NCBI GenBank assembly: GCA_040902515.1
Contig: JBBDXB010000006.1
Location: 335,814-399,813, forward strand
Length of the DNA stretch: 64,000 nucleotides
From: Patescibacteria group bacterium
Lineage (GTDB): Bacteria; Patescibacteriota; SICC01
Direction of reading: 5' to 3'
Shown: positions 1,607 through 51,393 of the stretch, in pieces
Position numbering within the stretch: position 1 is the stretch's first letter
How the letters are laid out: every line of letters starts with the position of its first letter
Made by a program: the position numbers and the translations under genes
Notes under the pieces: generated by a model
Database searches by the model: none
What the model saw: the letters and a program-made list of their open reading frames with translations, nothing else
What the model was told of the DNA's origin: nothing

Positions 1607-1724
1607 GGCGGCGTAGCTCAGACGGTAGAGCGCTCGCGAGGAGAAGCCACAAGAGAAGGCGGAACGACATCCACCGGCATCGGGTCGGTAGCGAGGAGCG
1701 CGGGTTCAAGTCCCGTCGTCGCCA
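1607..1724 (+). tRNA. atypical tRNA-like gene, 118 nt, with a ~46-nt insertion in the anticodon arm; isotype undetermined
   Basis: Canonical 7-bp acceptor (GGCGGCG/CGTCGCC), U8-A9, D-arm GCTC-AGACGGTA-GAGC, T-arm GCGGG-TTCAAGT-CCCGT, discriminator A. Between the CTCGC and GCGAG stem halves there are 53 nt instead of a 7-nt loop. Confidence 0.45.
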
Positions 1725-2933: not shown

Positions 2934-3159
2934 CAGGATAAACGTCCCGTGCGACCCATCCCAATATCGGATATAAGGCAGTGAAGGGTCAAAAGTGGGT
3001 GTAGCAAGAGGGTTCATGACGAGGACAACAGTACCGCCACGGCAGAGGATGTCTAACGGTTACCGAAAAGAGCAGTGAGTGCTATCTTGTAAGCAAGGGG
3101 AAAAGAACTCCTTAATAGTCTGTTTTCTACCGGCAACCGCGAAAACTAGAGGAGCAGGA

Positions 3160-3699
3160 ATGCTTAATCTGCCCAATTGTATTACCTTGTTGCGGTTGCC
3201 AATGATTGCCGGTGTTGTTCTCTTCTTGAGTATGGAGAGCACCACCAGTGACCGCGCAGCCGTACTTTTGGCAGTAGCCATCGTTGGATCGGACGTACTC
3301 GATGGATATATTGCCAAGAAGTACAGCCAGATAACCGAATTCGGACAGTTTATCGACCCCCTTGTCGATAAGCTCTTCATCGCTTCGGCCCTGTTGGCGC
3401 TTTTCGTTCGAGGCGAGGTAGCAGTTTGGGTGATAGTGGTAATCCTCGGTCGCGATCTGGCCGTGACGGCGTTGCGGGCCTATCTTGGTAGAAAGGGCGC
3501 GTCTATGCCTGCTGTTCGGGCGGCTCAACATAAGACAACCCTTCAGTCCTTGATGGTCATCCTTCTAATCGCAGTCAGCGGGAACCCGTTGTGGCTGCAG
3601 GGACTCATCTGGATCACTGTTGGAGTTACGCTCTATACAGGATTCAGGTATTTCCTCACAGCATCAGCACTTCTACAAGAAAGGAAAACTGCGAAGTAA
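3160..3699 (+). CDS. pgsA: CDP-alcohol phosphatidyltransferase (PgsA-like phosphatidylglycerophosphate synthase)
   Basis: D-G-x2-A-K…G-x3-D-x3-D motif (SDVLDGYIAKKYSQITEFGQFIDPLVDKL). Multi-TM. GGAG 5 nt upstream of ATG 3160. Lower GC than neighbours. Confidence 0.75.
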   Translation: MLNLPNCITLLRLPMIAGVVLFLSMESTTSDRAAVLLAVAIVGSDVLDGYIAKKYSQITEFGQFIDPLVDKLFIASALLALFVRGEVAVWVIVVILGRDLAVTALRAYLGRKGASMPAVRAAQHKTTLQSLMVILLIAVSGNPLWLQGLIWITVGVTLYTGFRYFLTASALLQERKTAK

Positions 3700-3726
3700 C
3701 CGGGGCAATCATCAGAAAGTAAATCA

Positions 3727-3768
3727 GTTGGTGGGTGCTGCAGAAAGCACTTTCGGCATCCACCAACC
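3727..3768 (+). terminator. compound GC hairpin after pgsA (GTTGGTGG…CCACCAAC with nested GTGCT/AGCAC stem), no U-tract
   Basis: 8-bp outer stem and 5-bp inner stem starting 28 nt after the pgsA stop. Confidence 0.35.
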
Positions 3769-3782
3769 CTCGGCTTCCACAA

Positions 3783-4460
3783 CTAGGACTCCAGTACCTC
3801 TGCTAGCAAGGATGCCTGTGTCTGTTTGGAGAAATTGTTTATGGGGATATGTTTGTGAAACCTGAGCCCCGGAACCATTGCCGCTGCAAAAAGTGCGAAT
3901 CGTCGGTCGCCATGACGAGCTCGTTCCATAGAGGCGAGATATTGTAGCAGACAAGCTTTACTTTCATTTTCACGTTCTAATCCTTTAGCGCCGAGAATCA
4001 AGTGACCTGTAGCGTGATCGACACCGGCTTGCATGAATACTTCGGCCATGCGGCGAGGGAAGCTGGTCGCAGGAGAATCACTGTAGAGAATCGCTAGCGG
4101 TGTATCCATACCATCGAACTTTACTTCTACGGCCTGGACTTCTTCAGGTGCTGGTCGATCTGCCAGAATCCATCGGGCACTTTCTCTTACGCTTGTAAGC
4201 GTTTCTCGATCTACTCCAATCGATTCAAAGGTATCGAAAGAATCCTCGCGTAACTCGATGAATTGTTCCCAAGTCACGTCTATTTCGGGCAACCGGTCCA
4301 CCATGTGTCGGATCGCCCGATGCAGTCGGGTGTTCGGCCGCGGGGGAGCCGCGTAGCCTACATCGTCTAATAATCGGTCAGGATCCTCAGGCAATAAATG
4401 TGGATTTCTAGATGATTCCTTTACTAGGATTTCTGATAAATCTGGTGAGGGCTCTGGCAC
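3783..4460 (-). CDS. hypothetical protein (225 aa)
   Basis: Minus-strand ORF with GTG start and no obvious SD, in a lower-GC islet. Contains GVDHATGHLILGAKG. No confident family assignment. Confidence 0.45.
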   Translation of the reverse strand: MPEPSPDLSEILVKESSRNPHLLPEDPDRLLDDVGYAAPPRPNTRLHRAIRHMVDRLPEIDVTWEQFIELREDSFDTFESIGVDRETLTSVRESARWILADRPAPEEVQAVEVKFDGMDTPLAILYSDSPATSFPRRMAEVFMQAGVDHATGHLILGAKGLERENESKACLLQYLASMERARHGDRRFALFAAAMVPGLRFHKHIPINNFSKQTQASLLAEVLES

Positions 4461-4487
4461 TGTAGTTGGTTGTTACTTTTCCTTTAG

Positions 4488-4523
4488 TGAGACATCTCTT
4501 TTTATAGTGTCTCATTTGTCTCA
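4488..4523. promoter_or_regulatory. candidate operator: TGAGACA-N13-TGTCTCA-N2-TGTCTCA in a divergent intergenic region
   Basis: Inverted repeat plus a direct repeat of the half-site in an AT-rich spacer between divergent genes (3783..4460 minus, 4703..5314 plus). An orphan AGGAGG at 4534 has no start codon after it. Confidence 0.35.
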
Positions 4524-4702
4524 TTTTGTGCCTAGGAGGATCGTAGACCCACCTGTTCCGCAGGATCGGCCGTATCTGAACCCAGCCCGAGAAGCCGGCT
4601 TCTTTTCGTGATGCCCGGTTGGTACAATGAAGCGCCGACTGACATCAGTTGGTTACCGTCCAGGCACGACCTGGAGCAACGCACATTACAAGGAGGAGAC
4701 AG

Positions 4703-5314
4703 ATGACGGCAACGGCACCGCCGGATGTCATCGTGGTATCGGCCCAAGAGCTCGAGAAGTGGGGCTGCCCGCACTGCGGATTCCAATCGGGGCAGAGCCT
4801 CGCGTCCACGGGTGGCGGAACTTGTTGGATCTGCGGCGAGTGCGGCAGATTCAGCATCGTCCTCGCCGAGGGCCTCACCGAGTCCCCCATCGAGATCGAC
4901 GAGGGGATCATCAAGGTCGGTGGCAATGCCCATGGCCCGACGCTCCAGGAGCACCCGCGCAAGGGAATCCCCAAGCATGGCACTCCCGACGAGCGGCCCG
5001 ATCAGGACGGCGGTGAGCACTTCCGTGTCCGCGGCATCGGTCGCGACCGGACTCCCGGTTGCTTCGTCTGCGGGGGAGAGGAGGAGCTCTACCACAACAT
5101 CGCCGCGTTCGTGCAGTGCAAGGCGTCCGGCGAGCGGGTCGTGGCGATGTTCGAGACAGGAGTTCGTCTCGACTACCGCGACTTCGAGCCCAACCGGGTG
5201 CAGGTGAAGGTGGGGGCGTGCGATACGCATCGCCCGAACTTGGACCGGCTCTACGAGCTGACCGGGGACGGCGTCATCAACGCGGAGCGAATCGAGACCG
5301 CCAGGTCCTGCTGA
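4703..5314 (+). CDS. hypothetical zinc-ribbon protein (multiple CxxC pairs)
   Basis: AGGAGG 6 nt upstream of ATG 4703. Motifs CPHCG…CWICGECG…CFVCGG. High GC typical of the host. The antisense ORF 4532..5230 is judged spurious. Confidence 0.5.
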   Translation: MTATAPPDVIVVSAQELEKWGCPHCGFQSGQSLASTGGGTCWICGECGRFSIVLAEGLTESPIEIDEGIIKVGGNAHGPTLQEHPRKGIPKHGTPDERPDQDGGEHFRVRGIGRDRTPGCFVCGGEEELYHNIAAFVQCKASGERVVAMFETGVRLDYRDFEPNRVQVKVGACDTHRPNLDRLYELTGDGVINAERIETARSC

Positions 5315-5394
5315 AGCACCCTGACTCCTCCATCGGCGTCCGCCGGCCTACCCTTTCATTGGCCGGCGGACGCTTCATCTTGCGCCTCACCTGT

Positions 5395-6183
5395 TTATGT
5401 CTCGATTTTCTTGACCGGCAGGGCGAGGTTGAGCCTTTCGGGGCTATCAAGGCGGTATTTTTTCCAGAGCTCCCGATACCGTGCTTGAACGTTCGGATTG
5501 GAGTGCTCCGCCCCTGAAAGCAAGAAATAGCTGGTCTGTCCCAGAAAACCTTCTGCCCTACGAGGGCCCCCTTTGGTGACTATCTGATTTACCAGGCCCT
5601 CGTAGAGATCCGCAGCGGCCAGGGAAACCTCAGGCAGCGGATGACCGAAAGGAATGTAGCGAACCTGTAATTCTATGTGATTATCCTCGTCAATCCAGCA
5701 GGCGAGGCGGTCACCCGCGGCTTTTAGTGCGCGCTTTGCGATTTCGGCATCTCTCATTTGTCCGGCTATGTTCAAGAGCTCGCCGGTGTCACCAGCGCTC
5801 TTTTCCCGCGAGACTGCAATCATGTGTTCAAGTGCGGCTACGCGCTCTTCCTTACTGAAGGCGGGGTTATATAGAACCATCCTTGAAGAGCGGTATATCT
5901 GCTCATCATCGACCACCTCTCCATCGGTCGCATCCTCCAGCAGCCGTTCATATGCGCGAGACGCGAGGTCTCGATCATGCTGGTCCAAAACTCGCAGAAG
6001 TTTCATTCTGCCCGCGTAATTGAGGTCATGATCATCGTCTTCGATGAGGACTAGGGCTTTTTTAAGCAACTGCTTTACACTTGCTTGGGACTCTGTGGAC
6101 GTCTCACAGAAGCCTGGTTCGAACAGTTCATCAGCGGGTGGATGCTGGTCGGGCGTATGCCCCTCGGTGTGTTCTGCACTCAT
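5395..6183 (-). CDS. hypothetical protein (263 aa), divergent from the TrmB-family regulator gene
   Basis: ATG at 6183 preceded by GGGGAG. Lower GC. No homology recognised. Confidence 0.5.
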   Translation of the reverse strand: MSAEHTEGHTPDQHPPADELFEPGFCETSTESQASVKQLLKKALVLIEDDDHDLNYAGRMKLLRVLDQHDRDLASRAYERLLEDATDGEVVDDEQIYRSSRMVLYNPAFSKEERVAALEHMIAVSREKSAGDTGELLNIAGQMRDAEIAKRALKAAGDRLACWIDEDNHIELQVRYIPFGHPLPEVSLAAADLYEGLVNQIVTKGGPRRAEGFLGQTSYFLLSGAEHSNPNVQARYRELWKKYRLDSPERLNLALPVKKIET

Positions 6184-6238
6184 TAGCTCCCCTTGGTTAA
6201 TTATTCGAGCTATCGAGTATCGCACGGATTCAAAAAAG

Positions 6239-6302
6239 TGTCAATGACAAGCATTTAATTTACTTAATATAGCTTTAGAAAGTGTCAAAATAGAGATTGA
6301 CA
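6239..6302. promoter_or_regulatory. two TGTCA/TGACA palindromes (TGTCA-A-TGACA at 6239-6249; TGTCA-N10-TGACA at 6283-6302), candidate operators
   Basis: Perfect inverted repeats in an AT-rich divergent intergenic region. The second overlaps the -35 of the regulator promoter. Confidence 0.45.
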
Positions 6303-6325
6303 AAAGTAAGAAGGCAAACTATACT
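6297..6325 (+). promoter_or_regulatory. sigma70-type promoter TTGACA-17-TATACT driving a leaderless transcript of the TrmB-like gene
   Basis: Consensus -35 at 6297-6302, 17-nt spacer, -10 at 6320-6325. ATG at 6332 lies about 7 nt downstream of the -10, with no SD. Confidence 0.6.
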
Positions 6326-6331
6326 CGCCGA

Positions 6332-7099
6332 ATGAACACTGCGTTGCTCACGAAGCTTGGCCTTACCGACTCCCAGGCGAAGACCTATCTCGCGTTGATC
6401 AAGGCCGGTCGGCTCACGCCGCCGGAGCTGGCGGCGAAGACCGGCGAGAGTCGCACCGCTGCCTACATGGCGCTCGCCAAGCTGGAGGAGGTCGGCCTGG
6501 CCCGGCCGGTGGAGGGTGCACGCAAGCAGACGTATGAGCCGGTCAATCCCGCCGAGTTGGAGCGATACCTTGACCGCCGGCGCAAGGAGTTGACGGAGAT
6601 CGAGGAAAACTATCGAGACTCGCTTTCCGGCATGCTGAGCTACTACTACGCGCACCGCAACGAACCAGGCGTACGGTTTTTCCAGGGCGAAAAGGGGTTG
6701 ACCAAGATTTACGAGGATCACCTGCGGACTGGCGAGGACGTCTACTTCGTCCGCACCCCGGCGGACGAGCAGTACTTCGGCAAGATCCTTTACCAGTACA
6801 TGACCAAACGGGCGCAGGCGGGGATTACCGCACACGGCCTGGCGCCATACAGTGAACGCGCCGCAACATGGGCCAAGCAGCACGACAAGCAGCTCAAGCG
6901 TGATATGACCTGGTACCCGCGCAAGGCCTACACGGCGCCGGTCGAGATCGCGGTGTACGGAAACAAGGTGTCGCTGGTTTCATTCGGCGATGAGGCGATT
7001 GGTACGATCATTGAAAGTCCCCAGATCGCACAGGCGCTGCGGGAGCTGCTCGGGATGGCGAGGGCCGGCGCCGGCGAGTTGATGCGGAAAATCCGCTGA
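6332..7099 (+). CDS. TrmB-family transcriptional regulator
   Basis: N-terminal winged HTH typical of TrmB (LTDSQAKTYLALIKAGRLTPPELAAKTGESRTAAYMALAKLEEVGLA) plus a C-terminal effector-like domain. Confidence 0.7.
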   Translation: MNTALLTKLGLTDSQAKTYLALIKAGRLTPPELAAKTGESRTAAYMALAKLEEVGLARPVEGARKQTYEPVNPAELERYLDRRRKELTEIEENYRDSLSGMLSYYYAHRNEPGVRFFQGEKGLTKIYEDHLRTGEDVYFVRTPADEQYFGKILYQYMTKRAQAGITAHGLAPYSERAATWAKQHDKQLKRDMTWYPRKAYTAPVEIAVYGNKVSLVSFGDEAIGTIIESPQIAQALRELLGMARAGAGELMRKIR

Positions 7100-7103
7100 T
7101 CGT

Positions 7104-8042
7104 CTAGTTGTTCTCGCCGGACCGCTTCTTGGCCGCGCCCATTTGTATCCGGGCTTCCTTGCGGCCGCGCTTGATGCCATGCCAGACGAGGCGCCCCAGT
7201 TCCGCAGCTAGGCGGAACGGCATGGCGACGACCCATTTGGCGGGATTGCTTTTCTTATACGTCTTGATGATGCGCTGAATTGATCCCTCTACGGCCCGCA
7301 TGGTCTCGGATGCCGGCTGCCCCTGCGCTTCGAATTCATGGATCTGGTCCTGCCGATGCTTCCGGGCGCGCGCCAGCCAGTCTTCCGTGATCTCCTTTTC
7401 CTTCAGTTCGTTCAGCGCTTTCCGGCGCTCCAGGTACTTTTCCCATGGCCACCAGCGCGCCCCCTGTTCGGATGTCCGATCGATGTGGTTTTGCACGTTG
7501 TTCAGGGTCTCTTCGCGGCGAAGCTGTTCCGCCAGGTCCTTGACCTCGATTTCATCACGCACATCCGCGCGATCGATGCGCCGCTTGGTCCGGCCCGAGG
7601 CGTTCTCGTAGGCAGCGGTCGCGTCCTGGGTGGCCGCCACAGTATCCAGTCCGGATTTAGTCGCGAAGTCGTACTCCTCTTGCTTCATGAAACGGCCCCT
7701 GGAGTCCCGCTTGGGAGTCTTGCGGCGCAATGTACTTTCCGCGTGTTTCAGTTCTCGTTCCTCGATATCCTCCGTAATCTCGACGCCCTTTTCGCTGAGC
7801 CGATGCAACCGGGCCCGCGTTTCCGCGAGCGCTTCCTCGCGTGAAGCCTCGTGGGCCTCCGAGTAGAGGCCCCAGGCTTCTTCCTCGGCTCTACTGACGA
7901 TCTCGTCCTGCATCTCCGGCGAAGAAGTCTCGAAGAAGTCCTTCTGTCGCTGTTCGAGGTGCTCAGGACCACGTTTTGCTTCGTCCGGCGCCGGTTGTTC
8001 GCGTTCACTCATGGTATTTTCAAAATTGCTTAATGGTAGCAC
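7104..8042 (-). CDS. hypothetical highly charged (E/R/K-rich) coiled-coil protein; start at GTG 8042 or ATG 8012
   Basis: Long ORF with no SD at either start. Composition suggests an extended alpha-helical protein. Confidence 0.45.
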   Translation of the reverse strand: MLPLSNFENTMSEREQPAPDEAKRGPEHLEQRQKDFFETSSPEMQDEIVSRAEEEAWGLYSEAHEASREEALAETRARLHRLSEKGVEITEDIEERELKHAESTLRRKTPKRDSRGRFMKQEEYDFATKSGLDTVAATQDATAAYENASGRTKRRIDRADVRDEIEVKDLAEQLRREETLNNVQNHIDRTSEQGARWWPWEKYLERRKALNELKEKEITEDWLARARKHRQDQIHEFEAQGQPASETMRAVEGSIQRIIKTYKKSNPAKWVVAMPFRLAAELGRLVWHGIKRGRKEARIQMGAAKKRSGENN

Positions 8043-8126
8043 TAAATCGCTAAGCAGTCAAGGGGTTGCGGTCAGCACATGGCTTGAGCCCGGTCAGCCG
8101 CGGCCATGCTCTGCTACCGTTAAGGC

Positions 8127-9665: not shown

Positions 9666-9739
9666 ACCCCGCCGACGCTCCCCAGCACTTGACTGGTTGC
9701 TTTAAAAGTGCTAGGATTAGGCAATTTTAAACAAACCCA

Positions 9740-11076: not shown

Positions 11077-11105
11077 TTGACAAAAACGTCTAAAAATGTT
11101 ATGGT
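11077..11105 (+). promoter_or_regulatory. sigma70-type promoter TTGACA-17-TATGGT upstream of pilB (very short leader)
   Basis: -35 at 11077-11082, -10 at 11100-11105. pilB ATG at 11118 leaves a leader of only about 5 nt. Confidence 0.5.
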
Positions 11106-24456: not shown

Positions 24457-24591
24457 GCTTGGCAGCCCCGGTACCGGAGAGTAAACTCGAATCAAATGAA
24501 TATACACGGGCCTGATTCAGCCCCCGAACACGACGGCAACCGACCCGCTCCTGGCGGGTCTTTTTTAAAGCCGAAAGGAGATACCGGATTC

Positions 24592-25026: not shown

Positions 25027-25061
25027 TCGACAGGGGTGGTCGGGCGTAGAACAATGGGAGC

Positions 25062-27851
25062 ATGGCCGCTTCGTCCGCTCATCGCAAGAAACTCGTTCTG
25101 ATCGACGCCCACGCCCTGATCCACCGGGCGTTCCACGCGATCCCGTTCCTGGCCAAGAAGGACGGCGAGCTGATCAACGCCGTCTTCGGCTTCACGGCCA
25201 CCGTGCTCTCGGTGCTTAAGAATCTCAGGCCGGAATACGTGGCGGTGAGCTTCGACCTTCCGGAACCGACGTTCCGGCATGAACAGTACGCGGACTACAA
25301 GGCGACCCGTCAGAAAGCACCGGACGAACTCCGCTCCCAGTTCGGCCGGGTCCGCGAGGTCGTGGAAGCGCTCGGCTTCCCGGTGTTCGAGCAGGCAGGC
25401 TACGAGGCCGACGACGTGCTCGGGTCCCTCGCCAAGCAGTTCAGCCAAAAGCATGACCTCGACGCGTACATCGTCACCGGCGACAAGGACGCGCTCCAGC
25501 TGGTGGATGATCGCGTGCGGATCTTCACGCTCCGGAAAGGCATCAAGGACACGGTGATCTACGACCCGGCCTTGCTCAAGGAGGAGACCGGCCTGACCGC
25601 GGACGAGTTCGTCGAGTACAAGGCGCTCAAGGGAGATCCGTCCGACAACATCCCCGGCGTTCCGGGCATCGGCGACAAGACCGCGACGATCTTGATTCAG
25701 AAGCACGGTACGCTCGAAAGGCTGTACGCGGCACTCGACGAGGACCCGTCGAAGCATCCGGACATCAAACCAAAAGTCCGCGAAAACCTCGCCACGTTCA
25801 GGGATCAGGCGTTTCTTTCCCGCGACCTTTCCCGGATCAAGACCGACATGGAACTGTCGTTCCACCTGCCGGACTGCGTGATCCATGACTTCGACCAGGA
25901 GCGCGCCCTCGCCCTCTTCAAGGAACTGGAGTTCAGTTCGCTCGTTCCGCGGCTCAAGGAGGCAATGACCGTGGAATTGCCGATCGTTAAAGCCGCGGCT
26001 CACGCCGCCGAAGCGGTCGAGCGCGACTTTTCGAAGAAGGACTATCGGATCGTGGCGACCATTGCCGACTTTAAGGCTTTCCTTGCCGAACTGAAGCGGC
26101 AGGAGGTCTTCGCGTTCGATACCGAGACCGACACGCTGGACTCCGTGAAGCCGGTCCTCGTCGGCCTGTCGTTTTCGTGGCAGGCGGATATGGCCTGGTA
26201 TCTCCCGGTCGGCCATGCCGAGGGCCCGAACCTGCCGCTCGTAAAGACGCTGAAGACCCTGACGCCGGTGCTTACCGACGACAAAGTGGGCAAGGTCGGC
26301 CACCACCTCAAGTACGACTACGCGGTGATGCGTGCAGCGGGGATCGAGCTCAAGGGACTGCACTTCGACACGCTGCTCGGCTCCTACCTGCTCAACCCCG
26401 GCGCGCGGACCCTGAACCTCGACAAGCTCGCCTACCAGGAACTGGGATACGAGATGCAGCCGCTCACGGACCTGATCGGCGCTAGTCCGGCCAAGAACCA
26501 GAAACCAGTGTCCGCGGTGCCGGTAGCCGATCTCGCGAACTACGCCGCCGAGGACGCCGACGTCACCTGGCAGCTTTACGAGAAGTTCCGCCCGGAACTG
26601 GAACGGCTGGGACTCACCAGGGTCCACGACGAATTCGAGCTGCCGCTGGTGCCCGTGCTGGCGAAGATGGAGCAGCGCGGCATTCGGATCGACACGGCGT
26701 TCCTGGCCGAGATGGGAGGGCGGTTGGGAAAGCAGTTGGCGACCATCGAGCGGAAGGTCGAGAAGCACTGCGGCCATCCGCTCAATCTCAATTCGCCGCG
26801 GCAGCTGGCGCAGGTCCTCTTCGACGAACTCAAGGTCGGTAAGGGGACGCGTACCCTCGGCGGCGGGCATGCCTCGACGGCGGCCGACAAGCTGGAGAAG
26901 CTCCGCGACGCGCACCCGGTCGTGCCGCTGGTCCTCGAGTACCGTGAGCTCTCGAAGCTGAAGGGCACGTACCTCGATGCCCTGCCGAACCTGGTCCGGA
27001 AGGAGACCGGCCGGCTTCACACCTCGTTCAACCAGACCGTCGCGGCGACCGGCCGGCTCAGCTCCTCGGATCCCAACCTCCAGAACATCCCGATCCGGAC
27101 CGAGGTCGGTCGGCAGATCCGGAAGGCGTTCGTGACCGACCGCGGGATGCGCCTGCTCGCCGCTGACTATTCCCAGTTCGAGCTCCGGATCGCCGCGCAC
27201 ATCTCCGGCGACGAAAGGCTCAAGGAGCACTTCCGGGAGGGGCGGGACATCCATACCGCCACGGCCGCGGAAGTGGCCGGCGTTTCCCAGTCGAAGGTCA
27301 CCCCCGAGCAGCGCTACGCCGCCAAGGCCGTGAACTTCTCGATCCTCTACGGAGCCACCCCGCACGGCGTCGCGCGCAGCACCGGCATGAGCGTCCCCGA
27401 CGCACGGACATACATCGAGCGGTACTTCGAGACCTACCCGAAGCTTCGCGAATACATGGACGCGATGGTCGCGAAGGTCCGGACGGATGGATACGTCGAG
27501 ACGCTATTCGGCCGGCGACGCTACATCCCGGAGATCAACTCCAGTTCGCACCCGATTCGGGAAGCGGCCAAACGGATGGCAATCAACATGCCGATCCAAG
27601 GCACCCAAGCGGACATCCTCAAGTTGGCGATGATCGCGCTTGACCGGAAACTGGCCGGGACGTTTCCCGACACGCATCTGCTGCTGACGGTGCACGACGA
27701 GCTGGTACTGGAGGTCCCGACCGCACGGCTTGTCGCCGCCGCCGCGCTCGTCGAGGAAACCATGCGCGATGCGTACGAGCTGTCCGTGCCGGTGGCGGTA
27801 TCGGTCACGGCAGGCAGGAGCTGGGGCGACCTGAAACCGGTACGGGCCTGA
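25062..27851 (+). CDS. polA: DNA polymerase I
   Basis: 5'-3' exonuclease domain, 3'-5' exonuclease domain, and polymerase motifs A (DYSQIELR), B (RRxAKxxNFGxxYG) and C (HDE). Confidence 0.95.
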   Translation: MAASSAHRKKLVLIDAHALIHRAFHAIPFLAKKDGELINAVFGFTATVLSVLKNLRPEYVAVSFDLPEPTFRHEQYADYKATRQKAPDELRSQFGRVREVVEALGFPVFEQAGYEADDVLGSLAKQFSQKHDLDAYIVTGDKDALQLVDDRVRIFTLRKGIKDTVIYDPALLKEETGLTADEFVEYKALKGDPSDNIPGVPGIGDKTATILIQKHGTLERLYAALDEDPSKHPDIKPKVRENLATFRDQAFLSRDLSRIKTDMELSFHLPDCVIHDFDQERALALFKELEFSSLVPRLKEAMTVELPIVKAAAHAAEAVERDFSKKDYRIVATIADFKAFLAELKRQEVFAFDTETDTLDSVKPVLVGLSFSWQADMAWYLPVGHAEGPNLPLVKTLKTLTPVLTDDKVGKVGHHLKYDYAVMRAAGIELKGLHFDTLLGSYLLNPGARTLNLDKLAYQELGYEMQPLTDLIGASPAKNQKPVSAVPVADLANYAAEDADVTWQLYEKFRPELERLGLTRVHDEFELPLVPVLAKMEQRGIRIDTAFLAEMGGRLGKQLATIERKVEKHCGHPLNLNSPRQLAQVLFDELKVGKGTRTLGGGHASTAADKLEKLRDAHPVVPLVLEYRELSKLKGTYLDALPNLVRKETGRLHTSFNQTVAATGRLSSSDPNLQNIPIRTEVGRQIRKAFVTDRGMRLLAADYSQFELRIAAHISGDERLKEHFREGRDIHTATAAEVAGVSQSKVTPEQRYAAKAVNFSILYGATPHGVARSTGMSVPDARTYIERYFETYPKLREYMDAMVAKVRTDGYVETLFGRRRYIPEINSSSHPIREAAKRMAINMPIQGTQADILKLAMIALDRKLAGTFPDTHLLLTVHDELVLEVPTARLVAAAALVEETMRDAYELSVPVAVSVTAGRSWGDLKPVRA

Positions 27852-50621: not shown

Positions 50622-50650
50622 TTGACATGCATGCCGGTTTTTGTGAGTAT
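50622..50650 (+). promoter_or_regulatory. heat-shock operon promoter TTGACA-17-(TGt)GAGTAT
   Basis: -35 at 50622-50627. Extended -10-like element directly abutting CIRCE. Confidence 0.5.
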
Positions 50651-50676
50651 TAGCACTCACTAGTCATGAGTGCTAA
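50650..50676. promoter_or_regulatory. CIRCE operator (TTAGCACTC-N9-GAGTGCTAA), HrcA binding site
   Basis: Perfect match to the CIRCE consensus 13 nt upstream of the hrcA ATG. Confidence 0.9.
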
Positions 50677-50688
50677 AATGACAGCGAT

Positions 50689-51393
50689 ATGTTAAGTCCC
50701 CGTGAAACCCAGATCCTTCGTGCCATCGTGAACGAATACCTGCATTCGGCGCAGCCGGTCGGTTCACGCGTGCTCCGGGTGCGGTATGGTTTTGGCATTT
50801 CCCCGGCCACCATCCGTAACGCGATGGGTGTGCTCACGGAAGCCGGGTTCCTCGAGCAGCCGCACGTATCGGCTGGCCGGGTGCCGACCGACCGTGCGTT
50901 CCGGCTGGTCATGGAGAGCGCTTCCACGGCGGAACCGTCGCTCGCGGAGCAGCAGAAGCTGTCCGTGCGCCTGGAGAAGGCCGGGACGCCCGCACGGGCG
51001 ACCCGCAAGCTCGCCGAACAGCTGTCCGAGACCGCGGGAGCGGCCGGAATCCATCTCGACGAAGACGGCGTGCAGCTCTTCAACCTTGCCAACGTCTTCG
51101 GCCAGCCGGAGTTCGAGGATCCGCGCGTGGCATCGTACCTCGCGGAACTGTTGGACCGGGTGAAGGACTGGCTGCCGAAGCTGGCCTCCCGAGTGAACCA
51201 AGTGGGTGTGAAGATCGGCGCCGAGCATGAGGATTTCCGGGCCCGGGCCGTGGCGATGATGGGCCTCAAGGTGAAGCCGGCGGATACGTACGAAGCACGC
51301 ATCGGCGTGATCGGATCGACCCGCATGCCGTACCAGCGGCTGAGCCGGCTGTTCGATTACGGCAGGAAGGAGATGGCCCGTGTCTACGGATAA
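50689..51393 (+). CDS. hrcA: heat-inducible transcription repressor HrcA (short, 234 aa)
   Basis: N-terminal winged helix (LSPRETQILRAIVNEYLHSAQPVGSRVL…SPATIRNAMGVLTEAGFL). Sits in a CIRCE context. Confidence 0.85.
   Translation: MLSPRETQILRAIVNEYLHSAQPVGSRVLRVRYGFGISPATIRNAMGVLTEAGFLEQPHVSAGRVPTDRAFRLVMESASTAEPSLAEQQKLSVRLEKAGTPARATRKLAEQLSETAGAAGIHLDEDGVQLFNLANVFGQPEFEDPRVASYLAELLDRVKDWLPKLASRVNQVGVKIGAEHEDFRARAVAMMGLKVKPADTYEARIGVIGSTRMPYQRLSRLFDYGRKEMARVYG

Follow-up and report, generated by a model that had tools for sequence, protein, structure and literature searches.

In the Thermococcales, coding and intergenic DNA is coated with little specificity by TrmBL2 (P. furiosus PF0496, T. 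kodakarensis TK0471), a chromatin-like protein of about 260 amino acids (aa) that is present in abundance (PMC4158304). TrmB and TrmBL1 (Tgr) of the Thermococcales and VNG1451C of Halobacterium share the DNA-binding family PF01978. All three are about 340 aa long and carry a sugar-binding effector domain, PF11495; they bind as dimers to palindromes over core promoter elements (TACT-N3-AGTA or TATCAC-N5-GTGATA (TGM)) and control genes of sugar metabolism. Tgr has been proposed to regulate its own gene; in Pfu TrmB, Y50 and D51 are listed as DNA-recognition residues, that is, the Tyr and the next residue in archaeal TrmB proteins (PMC4158304). Winged-helix dimers bound to a palindrome over their own promoter, with negative feedback, are also known among the MarR-, ArsR- and IclR-type autorepressors. 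In leaderless bacterial genes, such as those of Actinobacteria and Deinococcus ('group C' of GeneMarkS-2), a Pribnow box lies 6-8 nt from the ATG and there is no Shine-Dalgarno (SD) site (PMC6028130). Here we describe a PF01978 regulator gene at 6332-7099 on the plus strand of a 64,000-nucleotide stretch, called the window throughout (contig JBBDXB010000006.1, positions 335,814 to 399,813; G+C 63%), of a Patescibacteria/Saccharimonadia metagenome-assembled genome.

The window regulator shares with TrmBL2 its length and domain order, the recognition-helix Tyr and a C-terminal domain without a sugar-binding subdomain. It differs from TrmBL2 in sequence (16-20% identity), is no TrmBL2 equivalog and, unlike TrmBL2, appears to be tied to a single specific palindrome that co-evolves with it at its own promoter. 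Moreover, the TrmBL2 host is archaeal and uses TATA box/transcription factor B recognition element (TATA/BRE) promoters, while the host of the window regulator is bacterial and uses sigma-70-type promoters. With TrmB, TrmBL1 and VNG1451C it would share dimeric binding over core promoter elements and a specificity that depends on the Tyr and the residue after it. However, the window regulator has 255 aa and, lacking the effector subdomain, does not belong to the sugar-sensing TrmB proteins; the sites of its family read TGTCAA-N7/8-TTGACA and its one proposed target is its own gene. From the MarR, ArsR and IclR autorepressors it is set apart by its family, its phospholipase D (PLD)-like C-terminal domain, an operator arm that is also the -35 consensus, and a transcript that should be leaderless. 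The promoter-to-ATG layout, present at four or more genes of the window, is that of the group C genes; a difference is that leadered SD genes and leaderless genes stand back to back here.

The features on which the argument rests are the following:

6332..7099 (+), regulator coding sequence, 255 aa plus stop (Pfam PF01978, AlphaFold2 (AF2), Foldseek)
6297..6302 (+), TTGACA, serving as -35 of the regulator promoter and as right arm of the putative operator (sequence, promoter scan, conservation)
6320..6325 (+), -10 hexamer TATACT, separated by 17 nt from the -35 and by 6 nt from the ATG
6332..6334 (+), start codon ATG; the predicted transcription start (+1) is A6332, give or take 1 nt
6283..6302 (no strand), putative operator, inverted repeat TGTCAA-N8-TTGACA, candidate dimer site of the adjacent regulator with conserved, co-varying arms

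We consider it likely that this is a leaderless TrmB-family gene that represses itself through 6283-6302, next to a separate divergent promoter. A dimeric, TrmBL2-like winged-helix regulator would be transcribed from a near-consensus sigma-70-type promoter; transcription would begin no more than 1 nt away from the A of the ATG, giving a leaderless mRNA. The dimer would bind TGTCAA-N8-TTGACA at 6283-6302, with half-site specificity coming mainly from the residue after the recognition-helix Tyr (Y45-M46). Since the right arm of the operator is the -35 hexamer, bound regulator would compete with RNA polymerase for the -35 and exclude it, and the gene would repress itself (negative autoregulation). 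The PLD-like C-terminal domain, with its many invariant polar residues, would probably sense some signal. The TGTCAA at 6239-6244 would be a separate element, the -35 of an SD-leadered divergent promoter driving the gene at 5395-6183.

A first-pass annotation made from the letters alone had called the open reading frame (ORF) 6332-7099 a TrmB-family regulator, and both the profile score and the predicted fold bear this out. The protein scores 50.1 bits (E 2.5e-13) with Pfam TrmB (PF01978), whose cut-off is 25.6, over residues 6-73 and profile positions 1-67 of 68. The TrmB effector domain PF11495 had no Pfam match in the protein at E <= 0.01; NCBIfam TrmBL1 scored 23.6 bits, far under its cut-off of 650, and the TrmBL2 equivalog NF041141 23.1 bits against 530. 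In a PDB search with a profile of 38 homologues, TrmBL2 was the only close solved relative. The AF2 monomer model (predicted local distance difference test, pLDDT, 90.2) consists of a TrmB-type winged helix-turn-helix (residues ~6-73), a single long, putatively coiled-coil helix (74-108) and an alpha/beta, PLD-like C-terminal domain; the helix aligns to that of TrmBL2 in both the PDB profile and Foldseek comparisons. The top Foldseek matches were TrmBL2 structures over their full length (5bpd/5bpi/5box/5bqt, E 6.6e-15), aligned over 246-267 columns to chains of 253-263 residues at 16-20% identity and a template modelling (TM) score of ~0.4, a low value that we take to reflect a differing domain orientation. 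The C-terminal domain alone matched PLD-like folds such as NucT and Zucchini, while MarR, IclR and ArsR regulators were weaker matches of the N-terminal domain. Residues H184-D191 (6881-6904) read HDKQLKRD, which fits the PLD pattern HxKx4D; most family members have N instead of H184, K186 is not kept either, and this match is probably fortuitous. Among the invariant residues of the C-terminal domain are T142, D145, R160, R190, Y200, E205, E221 and S229. The family is large: an exhaustive protein search gave 1,465 clusters at 50% identity with E <= 1e-10, most of the listed matches being full length (about 250 aa). The relatives of the protein are almost all from Saccharibacteria/Saccharimonadia. 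The recognition-helix Tyr, Y45, is invariant in A1 and A2.

The coordinates of the first-pass annotation, re-read from the sequence, are all correct, and its claim of a near-consensus sigma70 promoter with a leaderless regulator mRNA is backed by a geometry conserved over many loci. The regulator promoter scored 11/12 in a promoter scan that found three promoter-like sites in a 3.5-kb region, against 0.8 expected. ATG 6332 is the earliest start possible after the in-frame stop, and the N-terminal pattern M-N/D-x3-L-x2-[IL]-G-L-T is conserved, in register, in the 38 homologues; ATG 6332 is therefore the true start. For comparison, 62 loci (numbered with an L below) were taken from species-representative genomes and 80 independent metagenome loci were added later; locus counts were restricted to loci with the family-type recognition helix (49 genome and 65 metagenome loci). 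The gap between the -10 and the ATG was 6-7 nt in 43/49 genome and 57/65 metagenome loci (100/114, ~88%), against a chance level of ~18% if the best hexamer could fall anywhere in the scanned 3-13 nt range. The start codon was ATG in 48/49 and 64/65 loci respectively (112/114). From this conserved gap we infer, with good support, that the regulator mRNA is leaderless; with only 6 nt between -10 and ATG, there is no room for an SD site.

Alternatively, transcription might start further upstream or translation at a downstream codon, the juxtaposition of -10 and ATG being a coincidence. An in-frame TTG is present at codon 5, and a few homologous loci have gaps of 9-13 nt, which imply very short leaders. 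We regard this as very improbable, since no other plus-strand promoter-like site was found in the 148-bp intergenic region, the residues before the codon-5 TTG are conserved, a ribosome-binding site would have just 6 nt, and both the 6-7 nt gap and the ATG recur at the frequencies given above. A leaderless regulator mRNA is the reading kept here. The same promoter-to-ATG layout is found elsewhere in the window, at polA (25062), an HrcA-like gene (50689) and a gene of unknown function (24496). These sites correspond to DNA polymerase I (25027-25064), the HrcA-like repressor (50650-50691) and an unknown 176-aa protein (24459-24498), with start codons 6-9 nt past the -10. Leaderless initiation thus seems recurrent in this genome of the Candidate Phyla Radiation (CPR).

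The palindrome over the -35, annotated at first pass as TGTCA-N10-TGACA, really has 6-mer arms (TGTCAA-N8-TTGACA) and is centred near -39.5 from the start codon. TGTCA-N(0-14)-TGACA occurs in the 64 kb just at 6283-6302 and at 6239-6249 (palindrome 1, TGTCAATGACA), against 0.31 sites expected, and two or more such sites were found in 4/100 shuffles; the in-window count alone is suggestive, not decisive. A palindrome of like design was found in the same place in nearly all loci, its right arm ending -29..-31 from the A of the ATG in 36/49 genome and 56/65 metagenome loci. Where a perfect palindrome of a locus's own type exists, it occurs once per locus (1.1-6.8 kb) and always before the regulator. 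The arms differ between clades, and they differ as pairs: TGTCAA/TTGACA, TGTGAA/TTCACA, TGTAAA/TTTACA, TGTCGA/TCGACA, TGTCGG/CCGACA and, in Peregrinibacteria, TGTCAC/GTGACA. At arm positions 4-6, 120/144 matches were symmetric, compared with a shuffled mean of 96, and none of 20,000 shuffles reached 120. The -35 departs from its consensus (TTCACA, TCGACA) together with the left arm, which is unlike a plain promoter element.

These observations bear on the possibility that the palindrome has no protein-binding role, being a -35 plus a chance or structural inverted copy, or that it is the site of some other factor. TGACA belongs to the -35 consensus, AT-rich intergenic DNA is full of such words, and the in-window chance test is modest. 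Even so, this explanation is extremely unlikely: the left arm is kept at a fixed spacing though it is no promoter element, the -35 leaves its consensus in step with it, and the arms are predicted in a held-out set by a recognition-helix residue of the adjacent protein (see below). Two further candidates were rejected. The left arm was considered as a third, minus-strand -35, but a -10 lies behind it in 9% of loci compared with 21% of shifted controls; and a terminator-like hairpin on the minus strand (6329..6313) was dismissed as chance (1 found vs. 3.7 expected). We keep the palindrome as a putative operator.

The residue after the invariant Tyr (Y45-M46 in the window regulator) predicts the sequence of the operator arms. 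The rule that YK goes with TGTGAA was fixed on the genome set (4/5 vs. 0/44). In the held-out metagenome set, TGTGAA/TTCACA accompanied YK in 22/24 loci vs. 0/41 (Fisher 2e-15). YT with TGTCG[GT]/CCGACA, seen once in the genome set, was found in 4/4 vs. 0/61 metagenome loci. That residue 46 predicts the arm sequence is strong but indirect evidence that the binder is the protein of the adjacent gene. The proposal that the palindrome over the -35 is an autoregulatory site is thereby strengthened, as the site is conserved and its arms co-vary with the recognition helix; taken together, these comparisons give strong inferential support to autoregulation of the regulator gene.

Three genomes carry two paralogues each: L003/L024 (JARIHI01), L011/L029 (CAYPSN01; same contig, few kb apart) and L009/L033 (JBBRSS01; also on one contig). 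In each pair one operator has an N8 spacer and the other N7, which suggests that operator spacing contributes to insulation between paralogues. L011, L012 and L014 contain a further family member (253-275 aa) downstream inside the fetched locus. No second regulator paralogue was found in the 64-kb window. The full 20-bp operator palindrome is single-copy there, and no further operator copies, such as would define a regulon, were found in the 64 kb (<=2 mismatches) or in ~300 kb of related loci. BLAST clustering of neighbouring genes found no neighbour family shared around the regulator across clades.

As to the sign of regulation, autoregulation is probably repression. In L004, L005, L010 and L051 the palindrome instead covers the spacer, the -10 or the start site, and L066, L068 and L069 show the same shifted placement, judged by right-arm positions. 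In the YK clades, the -35 itself has become TTCACA, which preserves the palindrome. A near-consensus promoter, a right arm that is the -35 and the shifted palindromes are together better explained by a block to RNA polymerase than by class II activation. Class II activators bind at -41.5. The regulator might accordingly be a class II-type activator of its own promoter, bound at about -39.5 and contacting RNA polymerase; the palindrome centre is near the class II position, and archaeal TrmB-family members activate as well as repress (PMC4158304). This is nonetheless improbable: the core promoter (11/12) is near consensus, so activation should be unneeded; the right arm is the -35, so the regulator and sigma region 4 would compete; and in several lineages the palindromes lie on the -10, the spacer or the start site, positions compatible with repression only.

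Several points weigh against specific autorepression by the adjacent protein. Class II activators, too, bind where the operator is centred, near -39.5. The nearest relative with a solved structure is TrmBL2, whose DNA binding is for the most part non-specific (PMC4158304). A rule linking R[AS]N.YM to TGTAAA is leaky (L025, L078, L104). Because the loci share ancestry, the Fisher and shuffle figures make them look more independent than they are, and the YK, YT, RTT-YS and R[AS]N classes probably go back to no more than a handful of events in evolution. In picking palindromes, the finder preferred GT/AC cores and resolved ties towards -30. Moreover, in the window's own clade the right arm is mostly TTTACA, and the palindrome is thus imperfect there.

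On the other side of the intergenic region, the following features were found:

6239..6244 (-), -35 TTGACA of the divergent promoter, which is the left half of palindrome 1 (promoter scan, conservation)
6216..6223 (-), divergent extended -10, TG-GATACT, with a predicted start site near 6209
6245..6249 (no strand), TGACA, right half of palindrome 1, not conserved
5395..6183 (-), divergent ORFan gene, 262 aa, no family match
6187..6194 (-), SD-like AAGGGGAG, 3 nt before the divergent ATG at 6183..6181

The minus-strand promoter (TTGACA 6244..6239, 17 nt, TG-GATACT 6221..6216) scored 10/12 and had been overlooked by the first-pass annotation, which took both palindromes for operator sites. Both are present in the sequence; 6283-6302 stands as a putative operator and 6239-6249 does not. 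Even the closest relative, L001, with a 93% identical regulator protein, lacks the right half of palindrome 1 and carries TGTCAATCATA there, and the compact form TGTCA-N0-3-TGACA was found in 1/96 loci, the window's own; the TGACA at 6245-6249 is probably fortuitous. The distal site is conserved only as [AT]GTCAA, which reads TTGAC[AT] on the minus strand; in 76/96 loci a minus-strand -10 follows it at 16-18 nt (17 nt in nearly all loci of the first set). In nearly all of these 76 loci the hexamer starts at -92 to -106 from the ATG, in clusters at -101..-106 or -92..-95. It remains TGTCAA in clades with operator arms TGTGAA, TGTAAA or TGTCGA, and would thus be read by RNA polymerase, not by the regulator.

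If both palindromes were nevertheless operators of the regulator, the divergent gene would be controlled through its -35. Here, the distal half-sites are identical to the operator arms and overlap the divergent -35. We judge this unlikely, given that the compact palindrome is confined to a single locus and its right half is missing in L001, that the conserved part is a minus-strand -35 with its own -10, that this hexamer stays unchanged where the operator arms have changed, that half-site spacings of N1 and N10 are incompatible with one dimer geometry (a dimer built for N10 would not fit N1), and that the divergent gene is not conserved. Palindrome 1 was consequently rejected as a second operator on conservation, co-variation and geometry, and a divergent promoter separate from the operator is the reading retained.

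The hexamer begins near -103 in loci of N7 type and near -94 in those of N8 type, and the divergent distance from the left edge of the operator differs between N7 and N8 loci by ~11 bp, or one helical turn. An ACAGAT/ATCTGT element lies at about -61..-74 from the ATG, near the midpoint between the regulator start and the predicted divergent start. It was found in 21/49, then 38/96 loci, against 0.027 expected per 52-nt window, in forward orientation for example in L012, L022, L025, L033 and L047 and in reverse for example in L002, L023, L026 and L035. It is absent from 6250-6282 of the window and from L001. This element may be a site for another factor.

The divergent gene has a leader of ~26 nt with the SD-like site. 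Its protein gave no Pfam, NCBIfam, PADLOC or PHROG match and, among 5.8 billion proteins, found itself alone; phmmer/jackhmmer searches against all neighbours (45 loci) gave a homologue in L001 only. The genes driven by the divergent promoter differ between loci and are unrelated between clades. The gene was therefore discarded as a conserved partner or regulon member of the regulator, its homologue being restricted to L001. The earlier suggestion that the same sites could control it is left without support, because palindrome 1 is not a conserved operator and the gene is an unconserved ORFan. Clade-specific conserved leaders of 50-60 nt follow the divergent promoter (e.g. ...ggcgacctagagcaaccgctcaaaggcgcacc..., ...gaaagtcaagctaacaa), seen on the minus strand in L011/L012/L014/L015, L017-L020 and L022/L033/L047. 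Rfam gave tRNAs only and no match to these leaders, which could be small RNAs or structured leaders. In the window, the region ~3000-6300, past tRNA-Ser 2847-2934, has a G+C and a third-codon-position G+C (GC3) of 0.48-0.55, vs. 0.63 overall, and its ORFs 3783-4460, 4649-5314 and 5395-6183 have no family matches. In L001 the tRNA likewise precedes the regulator, by ~2 kb, and in L011-L015 a tRNA comes right after it. The region ~3000-6300 may be variable or acquired DNA beside a tRNA gene.

Other observations concern the rest of the window. TA(A/G)GCAATTTT stands right behind the -10 of the promoter-like sites at 9689(+), 31797(+), 59962(+) and 8061(-), and weakly at 11077(+); leadered genes of this genome may share it as a start-site or leader motif. 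In the ORF 7104-8042 (-), GTG 8042 gives the longest frame but precedes the -10 (8038..8033) of a promoter-like site at 8061..8033, and the true start is more likely ATG 8012 (MSEREQ...), with a leader beginning TAAGCAATTTT; the protein had no Pfam or NCBIfam family match. An Rfam tRNA match at 1607-1724 (+) (118 nt, 50.4 bits) was not called by ARAGORN and could be a tRNA with an intron or insertion.

In our literature search, no paper dealt with TrmB proteins of Saccharibacteria or CPR bacteria, and none described a transcription factor with its operator from these groups; leaderless transcription in Saccharibacteria/CPR was mentioned in reference lists only and not reported. The mechanism proposed here is classical, a winged-helix autorepressor on its own -35, while the family, the operator and the specificity rule are undescribed. 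As judged from the sequence comparison, the circuit appears conserved across the Saccharibacteria lineage. A broader reading, possible but doubtful, is that this locus is the first example of a Saccharimonadia-wide regulatory cassette: a leaderless TrmBL2-like autorepressor, an operator readable from one residue (M, A or E for TGTCAA, K for TGTGAA, T for TGTCGG), a central ACAGAT and, at a distance that preserves helical phase, a divergent promoter for fast-evolving or ORFan genes. If so, variable genes, perhaps ones for interaction with the host, could be under a switch peculiar to this lineage.

The locus offers a concrete circuit of one protein and one 20-bp site, with a specificity rule that extends across the family, and it indicates that the reduced genomes of CPR bacteria use both leaderless and SD-led initiation. 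If the regulator does act in this way and binds further sites, the operator code would let regulons be predicted in the largely uncultured CPR. Its value lies in opening this lineage to regulatory analysis, rather than in a new principle.

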